Sequence record: OP114733
Direction: 5' to 3' (one strand)
DNA from: Escherichia phage vB_EcoM-pEB20
Length of the DNA: 64,000 bases
Shown here: positions 2,419 to 43,226 of the stretch, one piece after another
How positions within the stretch are numbered: position 1 is the first letter of the stretch
Layout: each line of letters opens with the position of its first letter
Position numbers and translations under genes: made by a program
The notes under the pieces: model-generated
Databases searched by the model: none
What the model was told of the DNA's origin: nothing
Seen by the model: only the letters and a program-made list of their open reading frames with translations

Positions 2419-3519
2419 ATGAAAGTTATGTTTATCCCATCTCGCGCAGTCCCATTTAACCCAGAACGTGTACAAGGTGGTCTTGAAGCAGTACATTTAA
2501 ATGTGTTGAAATATCTTGTGTCCATCGGTGCTGATATTGATTATATCGGCTTTGATAATGACACGTTTGGTGACTGGAAGGTTAATCATCATCCTGTTGG
2601 TCATCTGACTAAATTCAGTCTAGGTATGAGTTATACTATGGCTCGTAAGATTGTTGAACTAGCCGGCATTAATGAGTACGATTTCGTTGTTACAATGGAA
2701 CCGACCAAACTAACCGTTCAGGCAATTAAAGACGCGGGTCTCTCTAAAGTTCATAAGAATTTTATGGCAACACCATTTGAACCGGTATCTCGTGGCATTG
2801 TTCAAATTTGGGACCAGACTATTCAAATTCATAAGAACGGTGGTAAGAGTTATGCTCCTACTAAAGCCTTCCGTGAATTTGAACGCAAATATTGTTATAT
2901 GACTTCAGGTCTGACTGACAAAATTGATTATGATTATTGGCGAGCAAATCCGTTGTTTGAAGCCGAAGATTATCCGGTTATTTGTTTGAATGATAAACCT
3001 GAAGTTCTTCCGGCGACTGATCTGATTATTAGTGCACAACGTTATGACACTAAAATGCGTCGTACTGATGTTGCTCTTGAAGCGATTAAAGCACTAGGCG
3101 AAAATGGTGTAGGATACTGTCCTAGTAAATGGGCACCACCGGCTAAGTATCCTGTTATTATTGATGCTCCACACAGTGAAATCATGGAACGTCTTAAAAC
3201 AGCTAAAGCACTTATCAATACGTGTCCTGACACGGGTACGGTAGAGAATAGTTCTATTGAAGCCATCTCTAAAGGTGTCCCTGTGATTCAGTTAGTTTTT
3301 AAGGATTATCCTCATGCGACATTCGAATACGACCCAGATACTATGCGTGTAGAAATTGATTCCTCTACTCCTAAGAAAGAAGTAGTTGCGCTTTACACAA
3401 AAGCTGTATTAGAATTCACTGACACATACGAAGCTCGAGTTAAACGTGCTGAAGCAGTATGGAAGAAGTATAACCGAGATGCAGTTGTTGGGATGTGGGA
3501 TAAAATCTTCACAGCGTAA
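2419..3519 (+). CDS. GT-B-like glycosyltransferase candidate (possible hmC-DNA sugar transferase)
   Basis: 366-aa ORF; MKVMFIPS N-terminus and C-terminal TVENSSIEAISKGVPVIQ resembling the nucleotide-sugar-binding motif of GT4-type enzymes; sits where T4 has gene 60/mobA; fold assignment is by eye. Confidence 0.5.
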   Translation: MKVMFIPSRAVPFNPERVQGGLEAVHLNVLKYLVSIGADIDYIGFDNDTFGDWKVNHHPVGHLTKFSLGMSYTMARKIVELAGINEYDFVVTMEPTKLTVQAIKDAGLSKVHKNFMATPFEPVSRGIVQIWDQTIQIHKNGGKSYAPTKAFREFERKYCYMTSGLTDKIDYDYWRANPLFEAEDYPVICLNDKPEVLPATDLIISAQRYDTKMRRTDVALEAIKALGENGVGYCPSKWAPPAKYPVIIDAPHSEIMERLKTAKALINTCPDTGTVENSSIEAISKGVPVIQLVFKDYPHATFEYDPDTMRVEIDSSTPKKEVVALYTKAVLEFTDTYEARVKRAEAVWKKYNRDAVVGMWDKIFTA

Positions 3520-8663: not shown

Positions 8664-9110
8664 ATGTCCAAATATTTAACTCGTAAAGACCTTCTGGCAG
8701 TTGGTGGTGAAGTTGTTGCAGTAGTTCGTAATGGCGAATACGGTTCCGAAGTTTCTAAAGAGTTTCGTTCTCGTGAAGGTTTTTACTTCTTTGTTAAAGG
8801 TTCATCTGATTGGCGACAAGTAGCAGCACGGTTCTTTGTAGGACGTCAACGTTCTAAACAAGGGTTGGATGCAATTCTTTCTCACATTCGTCAAGGCCGT
8901 TCGCAACTAGCCCGTACCATGGGCACTAACAATATTGAATATGATGTAATCTTTGTTGCAGCTAAGAACATGAAACCACTGACCACTGGTTATGGTAAAG
9001 GTCAATTGGCTCTAGCATTCACTCGCAACCATACATCAGAATATCAAACACTCACTGAAATGAACCGTCTTCTGGCTGATAATTTCAAATTCATTCTGCA
9101 GAGTTACTAA
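8664..9110 (+). CDS. ndd: nucleoid disruption protein Ndd
   Basis: 148-aa ORF; [46 protein letters not shown]...[12 protein letters not shown] matches recalled T4 Ndd. Confidence 0.85.
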
Positions 9111-9162
9111 TTTATACAGGCCTATTAAGTTAGGCCTTTAATTTATTTTTGAGGTAATTAAA

Positions 9163-9309
9163 ATGATAGCATGGATTATTGCATTGCTGTGTTGGACATT
9201 TTTATTCGTTAGCACTTTAGTTACAGGCGAAACAACAGTATTTCAACAGGCCATATCACAAGGCACCTTAGCGGTCTTAGCTCTTCTTAACGTGTTAAAA
9301 GGCGAGTAA
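9163..9309 (+). CDS. small membrane protein (48 aa), ac/stp locus position
   Basis: Hydrophobic ORF MIAWIIALLCWTFLFVSTLV...; lies between ndd and gene 52. Confidence 0.35.
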   Translation: MIAWIIALLCWTFLFVSTLVTGETTVFQQAISQGTLAVLALLNVLKGE

Positions 9310-9449
9310 TGATTAAGAAAATCTTAGCAGGAGCCTTCGGGCTCTTGTTGTTGCTTACGGTTCTGTACTACGGTGTGATGTTTGGACTAATCCAAGTAGT
9401 GCTTTTCATTTCAGATGTTATAATGGATATTCGTTCATTAATATGGTGA
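9309..9449 (+). CDS. small membrane protein (46 aa)
   Basis: Start overlaps previous stop; hydrophobic GAFGLLLLLTVLYYGVMFGLIQVVLFI. Confidence 0.35.
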   Translation: MIKKILAGAFGLLLLLTVLYYGVMFGLIQVVLFISDVIMDIRSLIW

Positions 9450-9453
9450 AAAT

Positions 9454-10779
9454 ATGCAATTGAATTCTCGTAATCTAAAAAGTATTATTGATAACGAAGC
9501 CTTAGCATATGCGATGTACACCGTTGAAAACCGTGCAATCCCAAACATGATTGATGGATTTAAGCCGGTTCAACGTTTTGTGGTCCATCGTGCGTTAGAT
9601 TTGGCTCGTGGTAATAAAGAAAAATTTCATAAACTTGCGTCAATTGCAGGCGGTGTTGCAGATTTAGGTTATCACCATGGTGAATCTTCTGCACAAGATG
9701 CAGGTGCATTGATGGCTAACACATGGAACAACAACTATCCACTGTTAGATGGCCAAGGCAACTTTGGTTCTAGAACAGTCCAAAAAGCTGCAGCATCTCG
9801 TTATATTTTTGCTCGTGTAAGTAAAAATTTCTATAACGTATATAAAGATACTGAATATGCTCCAGCTCATGAAGATAAAGAACACGTTCCGCCAAAATTC
9901 TATCTTCCTATTATTCCGACAGTTCTTTTGAATGGCGTCTCTGGTATTGCAACCGGTTACGCAACAAATATTCTGCCTCATAGTTTTAAATCAGTCAAAA
10001 AGGCTGTATTACAAGCTCTTCAAGGTAAAAATGTCACTAAGCCAAAAGTTGAATTCCCAGAATTCCGTGGTGAAGTACATGAAGTTGATGGGCGTTATGA
10101 GATTCACGGAACATATAAGTTCACATCTCGCACTCAAATGCAGATAACTGAAATCCCATATAAATTCGACCGTGAAACGTATGTGAGTAAGGTTCTTGAC
10201 CCGTTGGAAGACAAAGGTCTAATCTCATGGGAAGATGATTGCGGTGAACACGGCTTTGGGTTTAAGGTGAAGTTCCGTAAAGAGTACTCGCTTCCTGATG
10301 ATGAAGAGCTACGTCATGAAAAAATCATGAAAGATTTTAGTCTCATCGAACGTCGTTCACAAAACATCACAGTGATTAATGAAACGGGTAAATTAGCGGT
10401 CTATGATAACGTAGTGGACTTAATCAAAGATTTTGTTGAAGTCCGTAAGACTTACGTTCAGAAACGTATTGACAACAAAATCCTTGAATCTGAAAAAGCA
10501 TTTAAACTGGCTTTTGCTAAGGCACACTTCATCAAAAAAGTTATCAACGGTGAAATTGTGATTCAGGGCAAGACTCGTAAAGCTTTGACTGAAGAGCTAG
10601 CACAAATCGAAATGTATAAAGAACATGTCGATAAACTGGTAGGTCTTAACATCTTCCATATCACTTCCGACGAAGCACGTAAACTAGCAGAAGAAGCTAA
10701 AGCTAAGAAAGAAGAAAATGAGTATTGGAAGTCTACTGATGTTGTGACAGAGTACACTAAAGACTTGGAGGCACTTTGA
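9454..10779 (+). CDS. 52: DNA topoisomerase II medium subunit (GyrA-like)
   Basis: 441-aa ORF; N-terminal region MQLNSRNLKSIIDNEALAYAMYTVENRAIPNMIDGFKPVQR matches recalled T4 gp52. Confidence 0.9.
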   Translation: MQLNSRNLKSIIDNEALAYAMYTVENRAIPNMIDGFKPVQRFVVHRALDLARGNKEKFHKLASIAGGVADLGYHHGESSAQDAGALMANTWNNNYPLLDGQGNFGSRTVQKAAASRYIFARVSKNFYNVYKDTEYAPAHEDKEHVPPKFYLPIIPTVLLNGVSGIATGYATNILPHSFKSVKKAVLQALQGKNVTKPKVEFPEFRGEVHEVDGRYEIHGTYKFTSRTQMQITEIPYKFDRETYVSKVLDPLEDKGLISWEDDCGEHGFGFKVKFRKEYSLPDDEELRHEKIMKDFSLIERRSQNITVINETGKLAVYDNVVDLIKDFVEVRKTYVQKRIDNKILESEKAFKLAFAKAHFIKKVINGEIVIQGKTRKALTEELAQIEMYKEHVDKLVGLNIFHITSDEARKLAEEAKAKKEENEYWKSTDVVTEYTKDLEAL

Positions 10780-19221: not shown

Positions 19222-20349
19222 TTATTCTGATGCTTCTTTAAATTCTTGTCCAAATACCTTACCGGTATCAGTTGAAGATTGAGTAGGTAATGTCATTATG
19301 TCTGGGGCACTTAAAGATTCTGAAACATAATTTACACGAATACCATTTATACCAAACTCGGCAGGTTTTGAAACGCTTCCATTACATGATACTTCAGTGA
19401 ATATAACGTTTCTTAATCCACCTTGCCCGACTGGAGCTGTACGATAACAATAAATCGTGAACCCGTCAGCACCAGCAGGAATTTCTATGTAGTCTTCATA
19501 TATCTTCCATTCACCTGCAGCCCCATCAAAGTTTGTATCCTTAAATGAAATAGGTGAAGTAGAAGGAGATTTAAAGAAACGAATAGAAAGTCGTGTCGTC
19601 CCTTGTGCTAACAAATCAGCATCGGCCATTAGTTGGAATTTCATATAAAGGAAATCTCCAGCCTTCAATTTATACCCAGCGAGAGGTGTAATAAGGGACG
19701 TTGTAGGCATCCTTTTAATTTCATTATTAGTACCTCCAACAGCAGATAAAAATGTGTCTGATGATTCGTACGTACGACTAGGGAAGCCGGTAGCACCAAT
19801 ATCATCAATCGTGTCGTACACAACATCAAGTGGTGTACTATAGTCGGTTGAAGTTTTCTTATTACTATACTTAATATGTTCTAGTGCTATAGCATTCTTA
19901 CCAGAAATATAAAACGCCGAATAAGAAATGTCCACTATATTTAAAACTTGTTGAGCTAATGGAATAGCAGAACTCCCAGCTTTAGTAAACCATGCAAGAA
20001 CTTCGGGTGGAAAGTTTGTTTTAGCATTAGTAACAAGAGCAAATATAAAATTAGAAGCATATGTGTCCATGTAAGTAACAAATGCACTTGACGTGGCGTC
20101 GTTTTCAGTAGAGAAATTATATGACTTAGATTCAACTACCGCACCTGTTGTAGGATTTATTACACGAATGTTTAATCCAACGGAAAAAACCTGGGACCCG
20201 AGTGGATTATCTTGGAACTTAATATAAGCAGGAGATGTTGATAACGGACAAGAGCCCGCTATGCTTAATTTAAATCGTACTGAATTGCTTTCCGATAAAA
20301 ATGGCGTTTGGACGTATCCTTGTCCAAACTTAGCCATAAATTTTTCCAT
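19222..20349 (-). CDS. 35: long tail fibre hinge protein gp35
   Basis: 375-aa ORF between genes 34 and 36. Confidence 0.85.
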   Translation of the reverse strand: MEKFMAKFGQGYVQTPFLSESNSVRFKLSIAGSCPLSTSPAYIKFQDNPLGSQVFSVGLNIRVINPTTGAVVESKSYNFSTENDATSSAFVTYMDTYASNFIFALVTNAKTNFPPEVLAWFTKAGSSAIPLAQQVLNIVDISYSAFYISGKNAIALEHIKYSNKKTSTDYSTPLDVVYDTIDDIGATGFPSRTYESSDTFLSAVGGTNNEIKRMPTTSLITPLAGYKLKAGDFLYMKFQLMADADLLAQGTTRLSIRFFKSPSTSPISFKDTNFDGAAGEWKIYEDYIEIPAGADGFTIYCYRTAPVGQGGLRNVIFTEVSCNGSVSKPAEFGINGIRVNYVSESLSAPDIMTLPTQSSTDTGKVFGQEFKEASE

Positions 20350-40753: not shown

Positions 40754-41050
40754 ATGATTTTAACTGAACAAGAAACTATGGTTCTTCGTGAACGTATTAA
40801 AACTATTCTGTCTGTAGGCGTTCATTGTGTTGTATTTGAAAAGGCTAACGGTGAGGTACGCACTATGTTTGCTTCGCGCGATGAACTTGAAGTCAAATAT
40901 GAAAATAACAATCCGGCAACAGAAGTTCGTTCTGAACCTCGTGAATCAGTTCGAGCATTCGATACCAAGTTAGGTCAGTGGCGTTCTTTCCGCCTTGATA
41001 AAGTAATTTCGGTTGATGGTACTCCGGTAGAACGTTTGCTTCTTATGTAA
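40754..41050 (+). CDS. hypothetical protein (98 aa)
   Basis: ATG 40754 one nt after cd stop; ORF track begins at GTG 40742. Confidence 0.5.
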   Translation: MILTEQETMVLRERIKTILSVGVHCVVFEKANGEVRTMFASRDELEVKYENNNPATEVRSEPRESVRAFDTKLGQWRSFRLDKVISVDGTPVERLLLM

Positions 41051-41107
41051 TATGCTTTACGAATAGTATGGTATTATTAATCTATCGTCAAACAACAAGG
41101 AAATAAG

Positions 41108-41440
41108 ATGTCTGAAGTACAACTCCCAATTCGTGCTGTTGGTGAATACGTCATTCTGGTTTCTGAACCCGCTCAAGCAGGTGATGAAGAAGTTACCGAA
41201 TCAGGACTTGTGATTGGTAAACGTGTTCAAGGTGAAGTTCCTGAACTATGTGTAGTTCATTCTGTAGGTCCTGATGTTCCTAAAGGTTTTGTTGAAGTCG
41301 GTGATTTGACTCCACTACCAGTTGGACAAATTCGAAATGTTCCACATCCATTTGTGGCTTTGGGACTTAAACAACCTAAAGAAATTAAACAGAAATTCGT
41401 AACATGCCACTATAAAGCTATTCCGTGTCTTTATAAGTGA
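41108..41440 (+). CDS. 31: co-chaperonin gp31 (GroES-like)
   Basis: 110-aa ORF; [34 protein letters not shown]...[10 protein letters not shown] matches recalled T4 gp31. Confidence 0.95.
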
Positions 41441-41448
41441 TATAAATA
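41441..41448 (+). promoter_or_regulatory. late promoter TATAAATA upstream of rIII
   Basis: exact octamer immediately after gene 31 stop. Confidence 0.5.
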
Positions 41449-41564
41449 ACTATATGAAGAGAACACTCTTCTAAGCGGTAGCCTACAACTGAGAGACTTG
41501 TCGAAAGAAGGTGAAATTCAGACGAACGTGGCTACTAAATATTATCTCGAATTGAGAATTTAAA

Positions 41565-41813
41565 ATGATTAAACAATTACAACACGCTCTTGAACTGCAA
41601 CGAAACGCATGGAATAATGGTCACGAAAACTACGGCGCGTCGATTGATGTTGAAGCCGAAGCACTGGAAATCTTGCGTTATTTCAAACATCTGAACCCGG
41701 TACAGGCAGCTTTGGCCTCTGAACTGGAAGCAAAAGATGAACTGAAATATGCTAAGCCTTTGGCTTCTGCAGCTCGTAAAGCAGTACGTCATTTTGTTAT
41801 TACCCTTAAATAA
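41565..41813 (+). CDS. rIII: lysis-inhibition accessory protein rIII
   Basis: 82-aa ORF following gp31 and a TATAAATA late promoter. Confidence 0.8.
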   Translation: MIKQLQHALELQRNAWNNGHENYGASIDVEAEALEILRYFKHLNPVQAALASELEAKDELKYAKPLASAARKAVRHFVITLK

Positions 41814-42107
41814 GTTTTAGGTGATTCGCTACCTTAGTGCGGCTAGAAAATCGAGGAGCCGTCGAACTGTCTGATTAATGATTTGCGAATCATTATAGTT
41901 TTAAGACCCCGACAGTTTTACGGTGTACCTCTTGAATGTATTTTATACTATCACGCGTCAGAAAAAGGTTATCTGTCTAAGTCGTGGTTGGTATGATGAC
42001 GGGTTTATGGTTATCCTGTCGTTAAATATCCAAAACCTATGTTCCCCTTGAGGGCTTGCGCAGGCAATGTCAATAAGTCCTGCATTTTCATTTAAAGAGA
42101 ATTTATA

Positions 42108-42287
42108 ATGGCAAAACAAGCTAAAGCAAAGAAAGCAGTTGAAAAGAAAGTTGATGGTACCTCTAAACGCGCTGGATACAAGCGTGGGTCGAACTCTCGT
42201 ATTAATCAAACAGTTGAGAAGATCATGCGCAGAGCACGTGCAGTTCTTCGAGATGATGCTTCTCGTTTTGGAAAGGTTGTTGCATAA
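42108..42287 (+). CDS. small basic protein (59 aa)
   Basis: MAKQAKAKKAVEKKVDGTSKRAGYKRGSNSR...; followed by GGGAGACTTCGGTCTCCC-T4 terminator; below ORF-track cutoff. Confidence 0.45.
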   Translation: MAKQAKAKKAVEKKVDGTSKRAGYKRGSNSRINQTVEKIMRRARAVLRDDASRFGKVVA

Positions 42288-42292
42288 TTTTA

Positions 42293-42314
42293 GGGAGACT
42301 TCGGTCTCCCTTTT
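42293..42314 (+). terminator. intrinsic terminator GGGAGACTTCGGTCTCCC + T4 (identical to 27518-27539)
   Basis: identical hairpin/T-run sequence reused. Confidence 0.8.
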
Positions 42315-42346
42315 GTGCGTTTAGGGCAGAAAAAGTTTAAAAAGAT

Positions 42347-42375
42347 GTTTACTCTCCTGTAGGATGTGTTACTAT
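42347..42375 (+). promoter_or_regulatory. early promoter (GTTTAC-N17-TACTAT)
   Basis: consensus match; homologous to promoter at 42791. Confidence 0.55.
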
Positions 42376-42417
42376 AGACTTGTACCACCTAATCAATAAA
42401 ACAACCTGGAGAACAAA

Positions 42418-42786
42418 ATGAAAATCAATCTGAACTCATACATCAAATGTAAAGACCACGATGGTTATAAAGCTATCGAAATTAAAGAATTCCAGTGGAT
42501 GTTATACAAAGAGCAATTTGAGTTCGTAGGTTGTATGACCCCTGAAGGTCCTTCTGATGATTTCTCTTGGAAAATTGTGTTAGCAAACTTTTTCACAGGT
42601 GACACATACGAATTAAAAACTATTATTACCGGTAAAATTCGTTCAGAAACATATGTTGACGAAGAAACTGGTTACTCTGAAGATGTTACATGGTATCAAA
42701 ATGGGCGCATTACAGCAGATAACCTGATCGAAAAAATGAAAGCCAAAGGTGTTTTAAATTTAGACAATTGGATTAAAGTTGCATAA
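42418..42786 (+). CDS. hypothetical protein (122 aa)
   Basis: ORF with GGAGAA RBS and its own early promoter. Confidence 0.55.
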   Translation: MKINLNSYIKCKDHDGYKAIEIKEFQWMLYKEQFEFVGCMTPEGPSDDFSWKIVLANFFTGDTYELKTIITGKIRSETYVDEETGYSEDVTWYQNGRITADNLIEKMKAKGVLNLDNWIKVA

Positions 42787-42790
42787 AACA

Positions 42791-42819
42791 GTTTACTTTG
42801 GTACAGGTTATGTTATTAT
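42791..42819 (+). promoter_or_regulatory. early promoter (GTTTAC-N17-TATTAT)
   Basis: consensus match; 9-bp inverted repeat GGTACAGGT/ACCTGTACC (42800-42808 / 42822-42830). Confidence 0.6.
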
Positions 42820-42860
42820 AGACCTGTACCAACAAACAACTTAAACATCTGGAGAATAAA

Positions 42861-43226
42861 ATGAACTACACCAACTTCGAACGTAAATATGTTTCTAACG
42901 GTATTGCTGGTTCTTCTGAAGTTATTTGCTTATGGAAACACGAAAACGGTACAGTTTGTGAAATCGAACAGTGCATGACTCCTAATTACGTTTATATGCG
43001 ATTTGAAAATGGTATCACGGTTTCAATCACGATGGAAGGTTCAAATTTTAAAATTGCATTAGATGATGATTTCCGTCAGCGTGATTTAGGTACTCATCCT
43101 TGCTGGAATGGTGTTAATCGTAAACTTCTGGTTAAAACTTGGATTCGTCATATCCTGAGTAACCGAGCTAAACCTGAACATCTCGAAGCAATCTTTGATG
43201 TAGTTCTTAACGAATTTGATATCTAA
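42861..43226 (+). CDS. hypothetical protein (121 aa)
   Basis: ORF with GGAGAA RBS and its own early promoter. Confidence 0.55.
   Translation: MNYTNFERKYVSNGIAGSSEVICLWKHENGTVCEIEQCMTPNYVYMRFENGITVSITMEGSNFKIALDDDFRQRDLGTHPCWNGVNRKLLVKTWIRHILSNRAKPEHLEAIFDVVLNEFDI

Follow-up and report, generated by a model that had tools for sequence, protein, structure and literature searches.

The 294-nt spacer between the genes rIII and 30.9 of Escherichia phage vB_EcoM-pEB20 (sequence record OP114733; positions 41814-42107, + strand, of a 64,000-nt stretch referred to as the window) is a real non-coding structured RNA region. It forms a string of independent modules, named A-B-C-D-E in their order along the + strand, and is neither one fold nor a gene. 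Module A is, with near certainty as judged from its sequence, a homologue of the plasmid-borne RNA antitoxin ToxI, and module D is a well-supported new pseudoknot motif that is absent from Rfam. The initial annotation of this interval had offered three readings, i.e., a structured non-coding RNA, a processing site, or a replication/packaging-related cis element. The first stands in so far as we find a covarying hairpin (module B), a covarying H-type pseudoknot (module D) and a ToxI-homologous unit (module A), which do not combine into one large fold. A processing site is possible, while nothing was found in favour of a replication or packaging element, for which the sole hint is a 10-bp 'ori type 2 repeat' annotated in the related phage ATK47. 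A comparison with relatives, proposed at the outset as a check, reveals compensatory changes in modules A, B and D. Because the changes in B and D include G·U wobbles, which would have no meaning unless the + strand is folded, an RNA fits the data better than a duplex-DNA site.

The limits of the spacer are exactly those first reported, i.e., rIII ends at position 41813 and 30.9 starts at 42108. The source phage is of T4 type (genus Mosigvirus, RB69/ATK47-like) and its spacer is 99.7% identical to that of ATK47. For the comparison, we collected 40 related loci from IMG/VR via the rIII protein and more via the 30.9 protein. Wherever a relative has a 30.9 gene, a spacer of 120-416 nt is present, and no conserved open reading frame (ORF) was found in these spacers. 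That the + strand holds no ORF of more than about 20 codons is correct for ATG starts only: with other starts there is one of 37 codons (TTG) and one of 42 codons (GTG), neither of them conserved. Across the 40 related loci, spacer ORFs differ in frame, start and extent, indels (1, 2 and about 50 nt) do not spare even the most conserved segment, and the nucleotides of module D are read in different frames in different phages. Since no ORF keeps its frame or start across the relatives, we rule out that the spacer is protein-coding. Some database records place 'hypothetical protein' features on it.

Between the source phage and T4, modules B (96.7% identity) and D+E (95%) are conserved more than the flanking genes rIII (85.9%), gp31 (88.1%) and 30.9 (90.6%). 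Rfam 15 leaves the spacer unmatched at E-values up to 10 and the spacers of the relatives unmatched at the gathering score. Taken as a whole, the + strand folds no better than its shuffles (z -1.2). The - strand reaches z -2.7; we prefer the + strand despite this value, because it is the strand that suits the G·U pairs and on which the genes are oriented. A scan of the spacer for promoters and terminators returned none, where the terminator scan (41000-43000) was empty but also missed an obvious hairpin after 30.9. Reading by eye for the T4 late (TATAAATA), middle (MotA box) and early promoter motifs gave no convincing site within the spacer. Because no promoter or terminator was found inside the gap, the spacer should be co-transcribed with rIII and 30.9.

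In type III ToxIN abortive-infection systems, the RNA antitoxin ToxI keeps ToxN, an endoribonuclease, inactive. Small plasmids of E. coli, Salmonella, Klebsiella and Pectobacterium carry such systems. Module A is a single ToxI-like (pseudo-ToxI) unit, AGGUGAUUCGCUACCUUAGUGCGGCUAGAAAAUC, at positions 41819-41852 of the + strand with a core hairpin at 41827-41841. It was located with a covariance model built from bacterial plasmid ToxI units alone (pECA1039, pU90-1), for which it is the only strong match in the 64-kb window (48 bits, E-value 1.3e-7, model positions 1-35 of 35). A weak second match at 19479-19516 (- strand) is attributed to chance, because it falls within an ORF of 375 aa and does not have the hairpin. 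In its plasmid record, the pECA1039 ToxI repeat is found directly upstream of a ToxN/AbiQ toxin gene, and identical ToxI arrays occur among 75 plasmid records that match it; most of these plasmids are small and mobilisable and come from E. coli, Salmonella and Klebsiella. We also compared the whole spacer by blastn with 72,556 plasmids and 5,426 complete E. coli genomes. Matches are obtained via bases 1-43 only and exclusively on plasmids, none on chromosomes; a record is matched at several places, all within ToxI arrays that adjoin toxN. The best ones belong to a second natural ToxI variant from the E. coli IncX4 plasmid pU90-1.

The 5' half of module A is identical to the pU90-1 unit, with which it also has the AAAAUC end in common, and its 3' GCUAGAAA matches pECA1039. 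The cleavage motif of ToxN is AA^AU, and a motif of this type is present at the 3' end of the unit (GAAAAUC, as in the pU90-1 units) and missing at its 5' end. Module A retains the core pairs 9-25, 10-24 and 11-23. Each of 10 phage copies has all five predicted pairs, and compensatory changes across these copies affect the pairs 9-25 and 10-24. With regard to ToxI, module A differs by a compensated U9C/A25G exchange, a loop that is 2 nt shorter around U16-U18, an extra 3' A, and a 5' tail of UUUU for AUUC. C27 and U28 are retained, i.e., ...GCGG-C-U-AGAAAA aligns with G26, C27, U28 and A29. A mutation of either C27 or U28 abolishes the antitoxicity of ToxI, while the U9C/A25G pair, a shortening of the loop from UUU to UU and an extra 3' A leave it unaffected (PMC3475682). 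The UUUU tail lies outside the published mutational tests.

Module D occupies positions 41994-42043 of the + strand and forms an H-type pseudoknot, as judged from the covariation of both helices. Stem S1 pairs 41998-42003 with 42015-42020, stem S2 pairs 42006-42010 with 42036-42040, and the A-rich loop 3, GUUAAAUAUCCAAAA, spans 42021-42035. In the consensus, S1 has 6-7 bp and is irregular at its centre, a GUU is invariant, S2 has 5 bp between the S1 loop and the bases that follow loop 3, and loop 3 is conserved in the form GUWAAAY...RAAAC. In the source phage S2 is weak, with GG/CC and UA/UA around a bulged U.

To quantify the pairing, we counted pairs explicitly and used slid 3' partners as a control. 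For 28 sequences, 81% of the cells are paired compared to 25-47% in the slid arrangements, and covariation amounts to 0.46 compared to 0.16 or less. A set of 23 more diverse sequences gives 86.5% versus 29-49% for pairing and 0.58 versus 0.19 or less for covariation, along with 65 double-change cells versus 4-18. Each helix holds four covarying pairs in both sequence sets. The S1 hairpin also folds with z -2.2 (5 of 200 shuffles). Within the window, the corresponding model (R1) identifies a single copy (63 bits, E-value 1e-13). D is the one module that is found in all T4-like spacers with a 30.9 gene.

Bacterial counterparts of D did not emerge. Across 185,579 species genomes, a pattern scan turned up no more than single matches that do not pair, and the model found nothing in toxIN plasmids or in the first 50 kb of the Yersinia plasmid p153kb, which is reported to carry tenpIN. 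A bacterial counterpart of D such as a TenpI-type antitoxin was thus not found, though the comparison included no TenpI or CptI sequence.

Module B (41853-41931, + strand) is a long bipartite hairpin of about 80 nt that is evident from both covariation and folding energy (-26.5 kcal/mol, z -3.53; 1 of 200 shuffles). Its outer stem GAGG.GCCGU.GAACUGUC / GACAGUUU.ACGGU...CCUC encloses an inner hairpin at 41876-41895. The consensus has 25 pairs, five of which show compensatory changes, and the conserved G·U pairs fit the + strand only. A GGAG sequence (41855-41858), i.e., the RegB motif, is buried in the basal stem. The inner hairpin is the local hairpin of the initial annotation, which exists with the TGCG loop but about 4 nt upstream of the site given; its arms are 41876-41883 and 41888-41895 and form 8 bp (TAATGATT/AATCATTA).

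Two distal pairings had been proposed as well. The positions of TGATTCGC (41822-41829) and GCGAATCA (41885-41892) are right, while CGACAG and CTGTCG, placed at about 41905 and 42029, are actually found at 41910-41915 and 42016-42021. Neither pairing is conserved, and every segment has a local covarying partner: CGACAG pairs inside hairpin B and CTGTCG is the 3' strand of the pseudoknot stem S1. Phage RB69 is without the TGATTCGC segment yet retains GCGAATCA. The G+C-rich segment that was also listed corresponds to 42044-42065; several of the early coordinates are off by 4-13 nt.

The remaining modules are less clear. Module C (41952-41986, + strand) is a hairpin CACG...CGUG around CAGA-AAAAGGUUA-UCUG (41959-41975) that is absent in T4. 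The CAGA/UCUG pairing corresponds to CAGC/GCUG in relatives, an apparent compensatory change read by eye only. Module E consists of two parts. E1 (42041-42058, + strand) is a short G+C hairpin GUUCCCCUUGAGGGCUUG with the consensus GUWCCC..GGGCUUG, a motif that is unique in the window; it recurs at varying positions in relatives and is missing from at least one (L039). E2 (42060-42083, + strand), as given by per-sequence folds, is a hairpin GCAGG(C)...(GU)CCUGC followed by the U-rich AUUUUCAUUU, and every relative has a hairpin at this position with unrelated sequences. E2 does not have the form of an intrinsic terminator, i.e., its stem has 5-6 bp, its loop 11-14 nt, the tail AUUUUCAUUU is interrupted, and it was not called by the scan that also missed the post-30.9 hairpin. 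In single-sequence folds, AUUUUC possibly pairs with the Shine-Dalgarno sequence GAGAAU of 30.9 (42084-42102, + strand; UCUCC...GGAAGA in relatives), for which RNAalifold on 18 leaders yields no consensus structure.

When the spacers of the relatives are read side by side, they appear as mosaics of about six short modules with variable order and presence. The source phage has the order A-B-C-D-E, T4 is without C, RB69 is without A, and other genera show E1-D-A-E2. In RB69 (L274, NC_004928; 6344-6606, - strand), the type of Mosigvirus, the rIII stop is directly followed by module B; A is therefore polymorphic within this genus. One locus (L003) has an rIII identical to that of the source phage and still misses modules A and B. 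In a Yersinia phage TG1-like locus (L027, 2249-3033), the E1-D-A-E2 leader and about the first 15 codons of 30.9 are joined to an unrelated 214-aa ORF, i.e., leader and start region of 30.9 seem to travel as a unit.

Two side observations concern the surroundings of D. The 3' end of module C (window positions 41978-41990, GUCGUGGUUGGUA) duplicates the 5' half of the D variant of other genera (GUCGUGGUUGGUAG...) beside 41994-42010, which looks like a recombination footprint between D alleles. In L041 and L042 (1923-1974), the D pseudoknot is found upstream of a truncated rIII, for which only residues 45-82 match; this indicates a different locus arrangement.

At the position of C, other genera carry a sixth module, F, which is absent from the source window. 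It is 137 nt long and found in 404 phage records (Klebsiella, Escherichia, Enterobacter, Yersinia and Erwinia T4-likes) with one copy per genome, and it is never annotated. Examples are L004 (2372-2508) as well as L013, L015, L019, L021, L023-L026 and L028-L036. RNAalifold predicts 40 pairs, including a GAAA-capped hairpin, and 19 of the pairs show compensatory changes; further pseudoknot pairings GAUGG/CCAUC were noted by eye. Spacers with module F have no Rfam match at E-values up to 10. Module F is a strong candidate for a new structured RNA class.

Modules A and D are not confined to the rIII-30.9 spacer. Pattern scans of IMG/VR and metagenomes for D, scored by S1/S2 complementarity, revealed D-type pseudoknots with the new compensatory S2 variants CUAUG/CAUAG, UUUUGG/CCAAAA and UUAUGG/CCAUAA. 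Several copies from phages outside the T4-like group sit within tRNA arrays, inside or right beside tRNA genes: between tRNA-Asp and tRNA-Pro on a contig with terminase, portal and HNH genes (L045, 6797-6847, - strand), abutting the 5' end of a tRNA (L155, 432-481, - strand), 6 nt upstream of tRNA-Met (L215, 2544-2593, - strand; also L188), and 12 nt after tRNA-Met (L137, 834-884, + strand; also L151). Further copies of this kind are found in the non-T4-like contigs L172, L223, L211, L180 and L156. The sequence AUGUUUG upstream of these tRNA-associated D copies is conserved. Processing of the tRNAs would release the array-borne D copies as RNAs of about 55 nt. About 2 kb from the tRNA array with D, L045 also encodes a 472-aa protein of PHROG 850 ('RNA-binding protein'; 8936-10357, - strand), a possible partner for small RNAs.

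The bacterial-only ToxI model matches the spacers of 10 other T4-like loci, while T4, which has a diverged A copy, and RB69 remain unmatched. A query with bacterial ToxI identifies ToxI-like units in 200 phage records from several unrelated families. Among the carriers are a ΦTE-like Pectobacterium phage, Escherichia phages of 76 kb (Bas88, XT32), a Salmonella phage of 90 kb, and T5-like phages of Klebsiella and Vibrio; 163 records are from Klebsiella phages, all T4-like as far as listed. Phage pzk-kv7 (L278, Demerecviridae), a T5-like Klebsiella phage, has two ToxI-like units (2998-3070) that lie 3 nt after tRNA-Ile within an array of 17 tRNAs, which suggests repeated independent capture of such units. 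An A-like unit and D occur together on one contig (L180). We consider A and D as autonomous small-RNA modules, because tRNA arrays and the T-even rIII-30.9 spacer are the two settings that house them.

Given these observations, we regard it as an even call whether the spacer is a co-transcribed RNA cassette for counter-defence or small-RNA functions, i.e., a series of decoys or small RNAs. By analogy, module A probably disarms the ToxIN suicide defence of the host as an anti-ToxN mimic. Shut-off of host transcription would let the labile host ToxI decay, such that ToxN is freed; the phage's ToxI-like RNA within the rIII transcript may then take the place of ToxI on ToxN and blunt the abortive response. 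Synthesis of RIII lasts from about 5 min to late infection (PMC9409239), and the downstream spacer RNA should therefore be present throughout. Module D, the structure of which is shown above, might bind an RNA-binding factor of host or phage, while the hairpins B, C and E may serve as structural spacers or stabilisers of the transcript and might modulate the translation of 30.9.

A wider version of this reading links the T-even spacer with the tRNA-array spacers of T5-like and other phages as an RNA counter-defence island, whose decoys would each neutralise a different RNA-binding immune effector of the host. We put this forward tentatively and hold it to be rather unlikely. If it were true, D and F would be founders of new classes of anti-defence RNAs and A their recognisable member.

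Several observations weigh against the cassette reading. Module A is a single unit, i.e., the 64 kb hold no second strong match and the region no direct repeat, while natural antitoxins comprise 1.9-5.6 tandem repeats (PMC3401426). In phage ΦTE, the wild-type 1.5 repeats are non-protective, and an expansion to 4.5-5.5 repeats is needed (PMC3475682). The loop of A is one nucleotide shorter than that of the tested UUU-to-UU variant, and its 5' side, UAAGUUUU, is without AAAU. The folding energies of module A and of the E region are no better than those of shuffles, and that of module C is unexceptional (z -1.4). For B, C, D and E, blastn against the plasmids and E. coli genomes named above gave no bacterial counterparts, and beyond module A the decoy idea is one of association only.

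The phage phenotypes are not in favour either. T4, T2 and T6 are strongly restricted by ToxIN, RB69 is less so, and this difference is attributed to TifA (PMC9391042), a protein inhibitor of ToxN that T-even phages already possess (PMC9391042, PMC10853763). The less restricted RB69 is without A and the restricted T4 has only its diverged copy. Because phenotypes and presence of A mismatch in this way, A is neither necessary for partial resistance nor obviously sufficient for it. For the same reason, i.e., the lack of A in RB69, A is ruled out as the cause of the lower ToxIN sensitivity of this phage.

Hairpins that sequester Shine-Dalgarno sequences or start codons are present in the T4 genes e, soc, 49 and I-TevI. 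The spacer could likewise be a cis-acting leader that shields the 3' end of the rIII mRNA against exonucleases, sets how stable the downstream message is and controls 30.9 translation by sequestering its Shine-Dalgarno sequence. It is always directly upstream of 30.9, the Shine-Dalgarno sequence is in all cases preceded by the variable hairpin E2 and a pyrimidine-rich segment ('UCUCC'/'UUUUC'), and leader and first codons are kept in L027 where the body of 30.9 is replaced. The burial of the RegB-motif GGAG in the B stem also agrees with such a role, as structure protects RegB GGAG sites (PMC3014915). We nevertheless consider this a doubtful alternative. RNAalifold gives no consensus for Shine-Dalgarno sequestration and the E region folds no better than shuffles. 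In tRNA arrays, where D and ToxI-like units are found as well, no mRNA is available for regulation; the free variation in module order and presence suits autonomous modules better than an integrated fold, and the homology to ToxI would be left unexplained. The presence of D between tRNA genes, with nothing to switch, also makes a riboswitch very improbable, in which D, alone or together with E1, would be the ligand-sensing aptamer (preQ1-I/SAM-II topology) and E2 the expression platform for 30.9. The pseudoknot does resemble such aptamers in its short loop 1, its A-rich loop 3 and the invariance of loop nucleotides, and a hairpin and a U-rich tract lie between D and the 30.9 ribosome-binding site. 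On the other hand, no Rfam riboswitch matches even at E-values up to 10, variable modules separate D from the ribosome-binding site, and no alternative pairing of D and E2 was seen.

Module A could also be a functionless remnant of past recombination with a toxIN plasmid, and the other modules filler that is tolerated and likewise without function. We consider this improbable, though the locus is a rearrangement hot spot with shuffled modules, insertions and partial duplicates such as GTCGTGGTTGG next to D. It would also agree with the non-functional 1.5-repeat remnant in wild-type ΦTE (PMC3475682) and with RB69 and others doing well without A. This is opposed by the compensatory substitutions that keep the pairs of A, B and D across genera, and by the conservation of B and D+E above that of neighbouring coding sequence. 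Furthermore, D is kept in all T4-like spacers with 30.9 and in unrelated phages, and ToxI-like units recur across several phage families. Finally, an unannotated small protein or a DNA-level site for replication, packaging or recombination is hardly credible. The 37- and 42-codon TTG/GTG ORFs and the 'hypothetical protein' records would speak for a protein, for which frames and starts are unconserved and indels of 1, 2 and about 50 nt run through the most conserved module. The 'ori type 2 repeat' of ATK47 would speak for a DNA site, against which stand G·U compensatory changes that are meaningful on one strand only; literature evidence for an origin at this position was not found.

The spacer is embedded in the + strand gene order cd, 31.1, gp31, rIII, the 294-nt gap, 30.9, a terminator-like hairpin, an early-promoter-like sequence, 30.8 and 30.7. 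Its upstream flank rIII (41565-41813, + strand) encodes an 82-aa lysis inhibition accessory protein (phrog_1457) and is preceded by the late promoter motif TATAAATA (41441-41448, + strand). The downstream flank 30.9 (42108-42287, + strand) encodes a very basic 59-aa protein that belongs to a PHROG of unknown function (phrog_1427), and the intrinsic-terminator-like hairpin 3' of it spans 42293-42314 (+ strand). As the 30.9 protein has no Pfam family and matches the PDB at chance level only, and given its PHROG, we reject that it is a known RNA-binding or ribosomal protein, and also that it is a relative of TifA, since similarity to TifA is absent. In an old T4 record (L002, X54536, 1554-1772), gene 31.-2 (30.9) is annotated from an upstream in-frame ATG with 72 aa. 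This ATG falls in module E2 and is not conserved, and the frame is broken in the source phage; the start giving 58-59 aa is the conserved one. In the ATK47 record, the 'ori type 2 repeat' lies just 5' of 30.9 (41135-41144, corresponding to about 42088-42097 of the window).

A comparison with known systems starts from ΦTE, whose pseudo-ToxI is likewise a phage-encoded, non-coding, intergenic ToxI homologue. Both copies carry U9C/A25G, a shortened U16-U18 loop and an extra 3' A, and the proposed action is the same, i.e., an RNA mimic that keeps ToxN inhibited, which would hold for module A by analogy. ΦTE is rV5-like, whereas the source phage is T4-type, and module A keeps C27 and U28, unlike the ΦTE copy. 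With regard to unit number, A has one compared to 1.5 in wild-type ΦTE and 4.5-5.5 in its escape mutants. Moreover, A sits in a multi-module structured spacer within an mRNA, unlike the ΦTE pseudo-ToxI. Relative to plasmid ToxI, the whole 36-nt unit aligns, while A is an orphan viral unit without tandem array, adjacent toxN and upstream cleavage motif. That is, the layout that a type III toxin-antitoxin locus has (repeats, terminator, toxN/abiQ) is not found here, since the downstream gene 30.9 is no ToxN homologue. The membership of A in the ToxI/pseudo-ToxI class is mixed in this respect: homology, core pairs and contact bases agree with it, tandem repeats and adjacent toxin do not. Judged by its letters, A is a newly recognised member of the phage antitoxin-mimic class. 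Antitoxin mimicry is known experimentally from ΦTE alone, and the 200 phage records with ToxI-like sequences, including those in tRNA arrays, suggest that it may be more widespread.

For the other modules, the T4 species 1 and 2 RNAs (rnaC/rnaD) come to mind, which are small structured RNAs of the tRNA cluster that are co-transcribed and processed with the tRNAs. The D and ToxI-like units of other phages are similarly placed; in contrast, D of T4-likes sits in an mRNA spacer and not in the tRNA cluster, the modules do not resemble rnaC/rnaD by eye, and the T4 tRNA region has no match to the D model. With classical H-type pseudoknots (T4 gene 32 operator, preQ1-I/SAM-II), D shares the topology of S1, short loop 1, S2 and A-rich loop 3. 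It differs from them in that it has no Rfam match, a highly conserved loop 3 of 15-16 nt and a 4-nt junction loop, and is not located at a ribosome-binding site. D and F are new structured RNA motifs with hundreds of natural variants and are suited to Rfam. The rIII-30.9 spacer, which annotation pipelines leave blank or fill with spurious 'hypothetical protein' ORFs, and phage tRNA arrays may thus both carry purposeful small non-tRNA RNAs.

No lytic phages have been studied better than T4 and its relatives. According to a review from 2010 on post-transcriptional control in T4, no riboswitch or trans-acting small RNA from T4 had been functionally characterised (PMC3014915). The literature on T4 versus ToxIN and the reviews of type III systems yielded no ToxI-like sequences in T4-like phages, and no description of the rIII-30.9 spacer or of a T4 small RNA there was found in the literature, which covers two relevant papers without their supplements. 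Although the conflict between T4 and ToxIN has been studied closely, no inhibitor other than the protein TifA (T4 gene 61.4; PMC9391042, PMC10853763) has been described. TifA and module A have the same presumed target, ToxN, which is addressed by a protein encoded elsewhere in the one case and by an RNA route in the other. The ToxI homologue in many T4-like genomes is thus a candidate for a second, RNA-based escape route from type III toxin-antitoxin defence.

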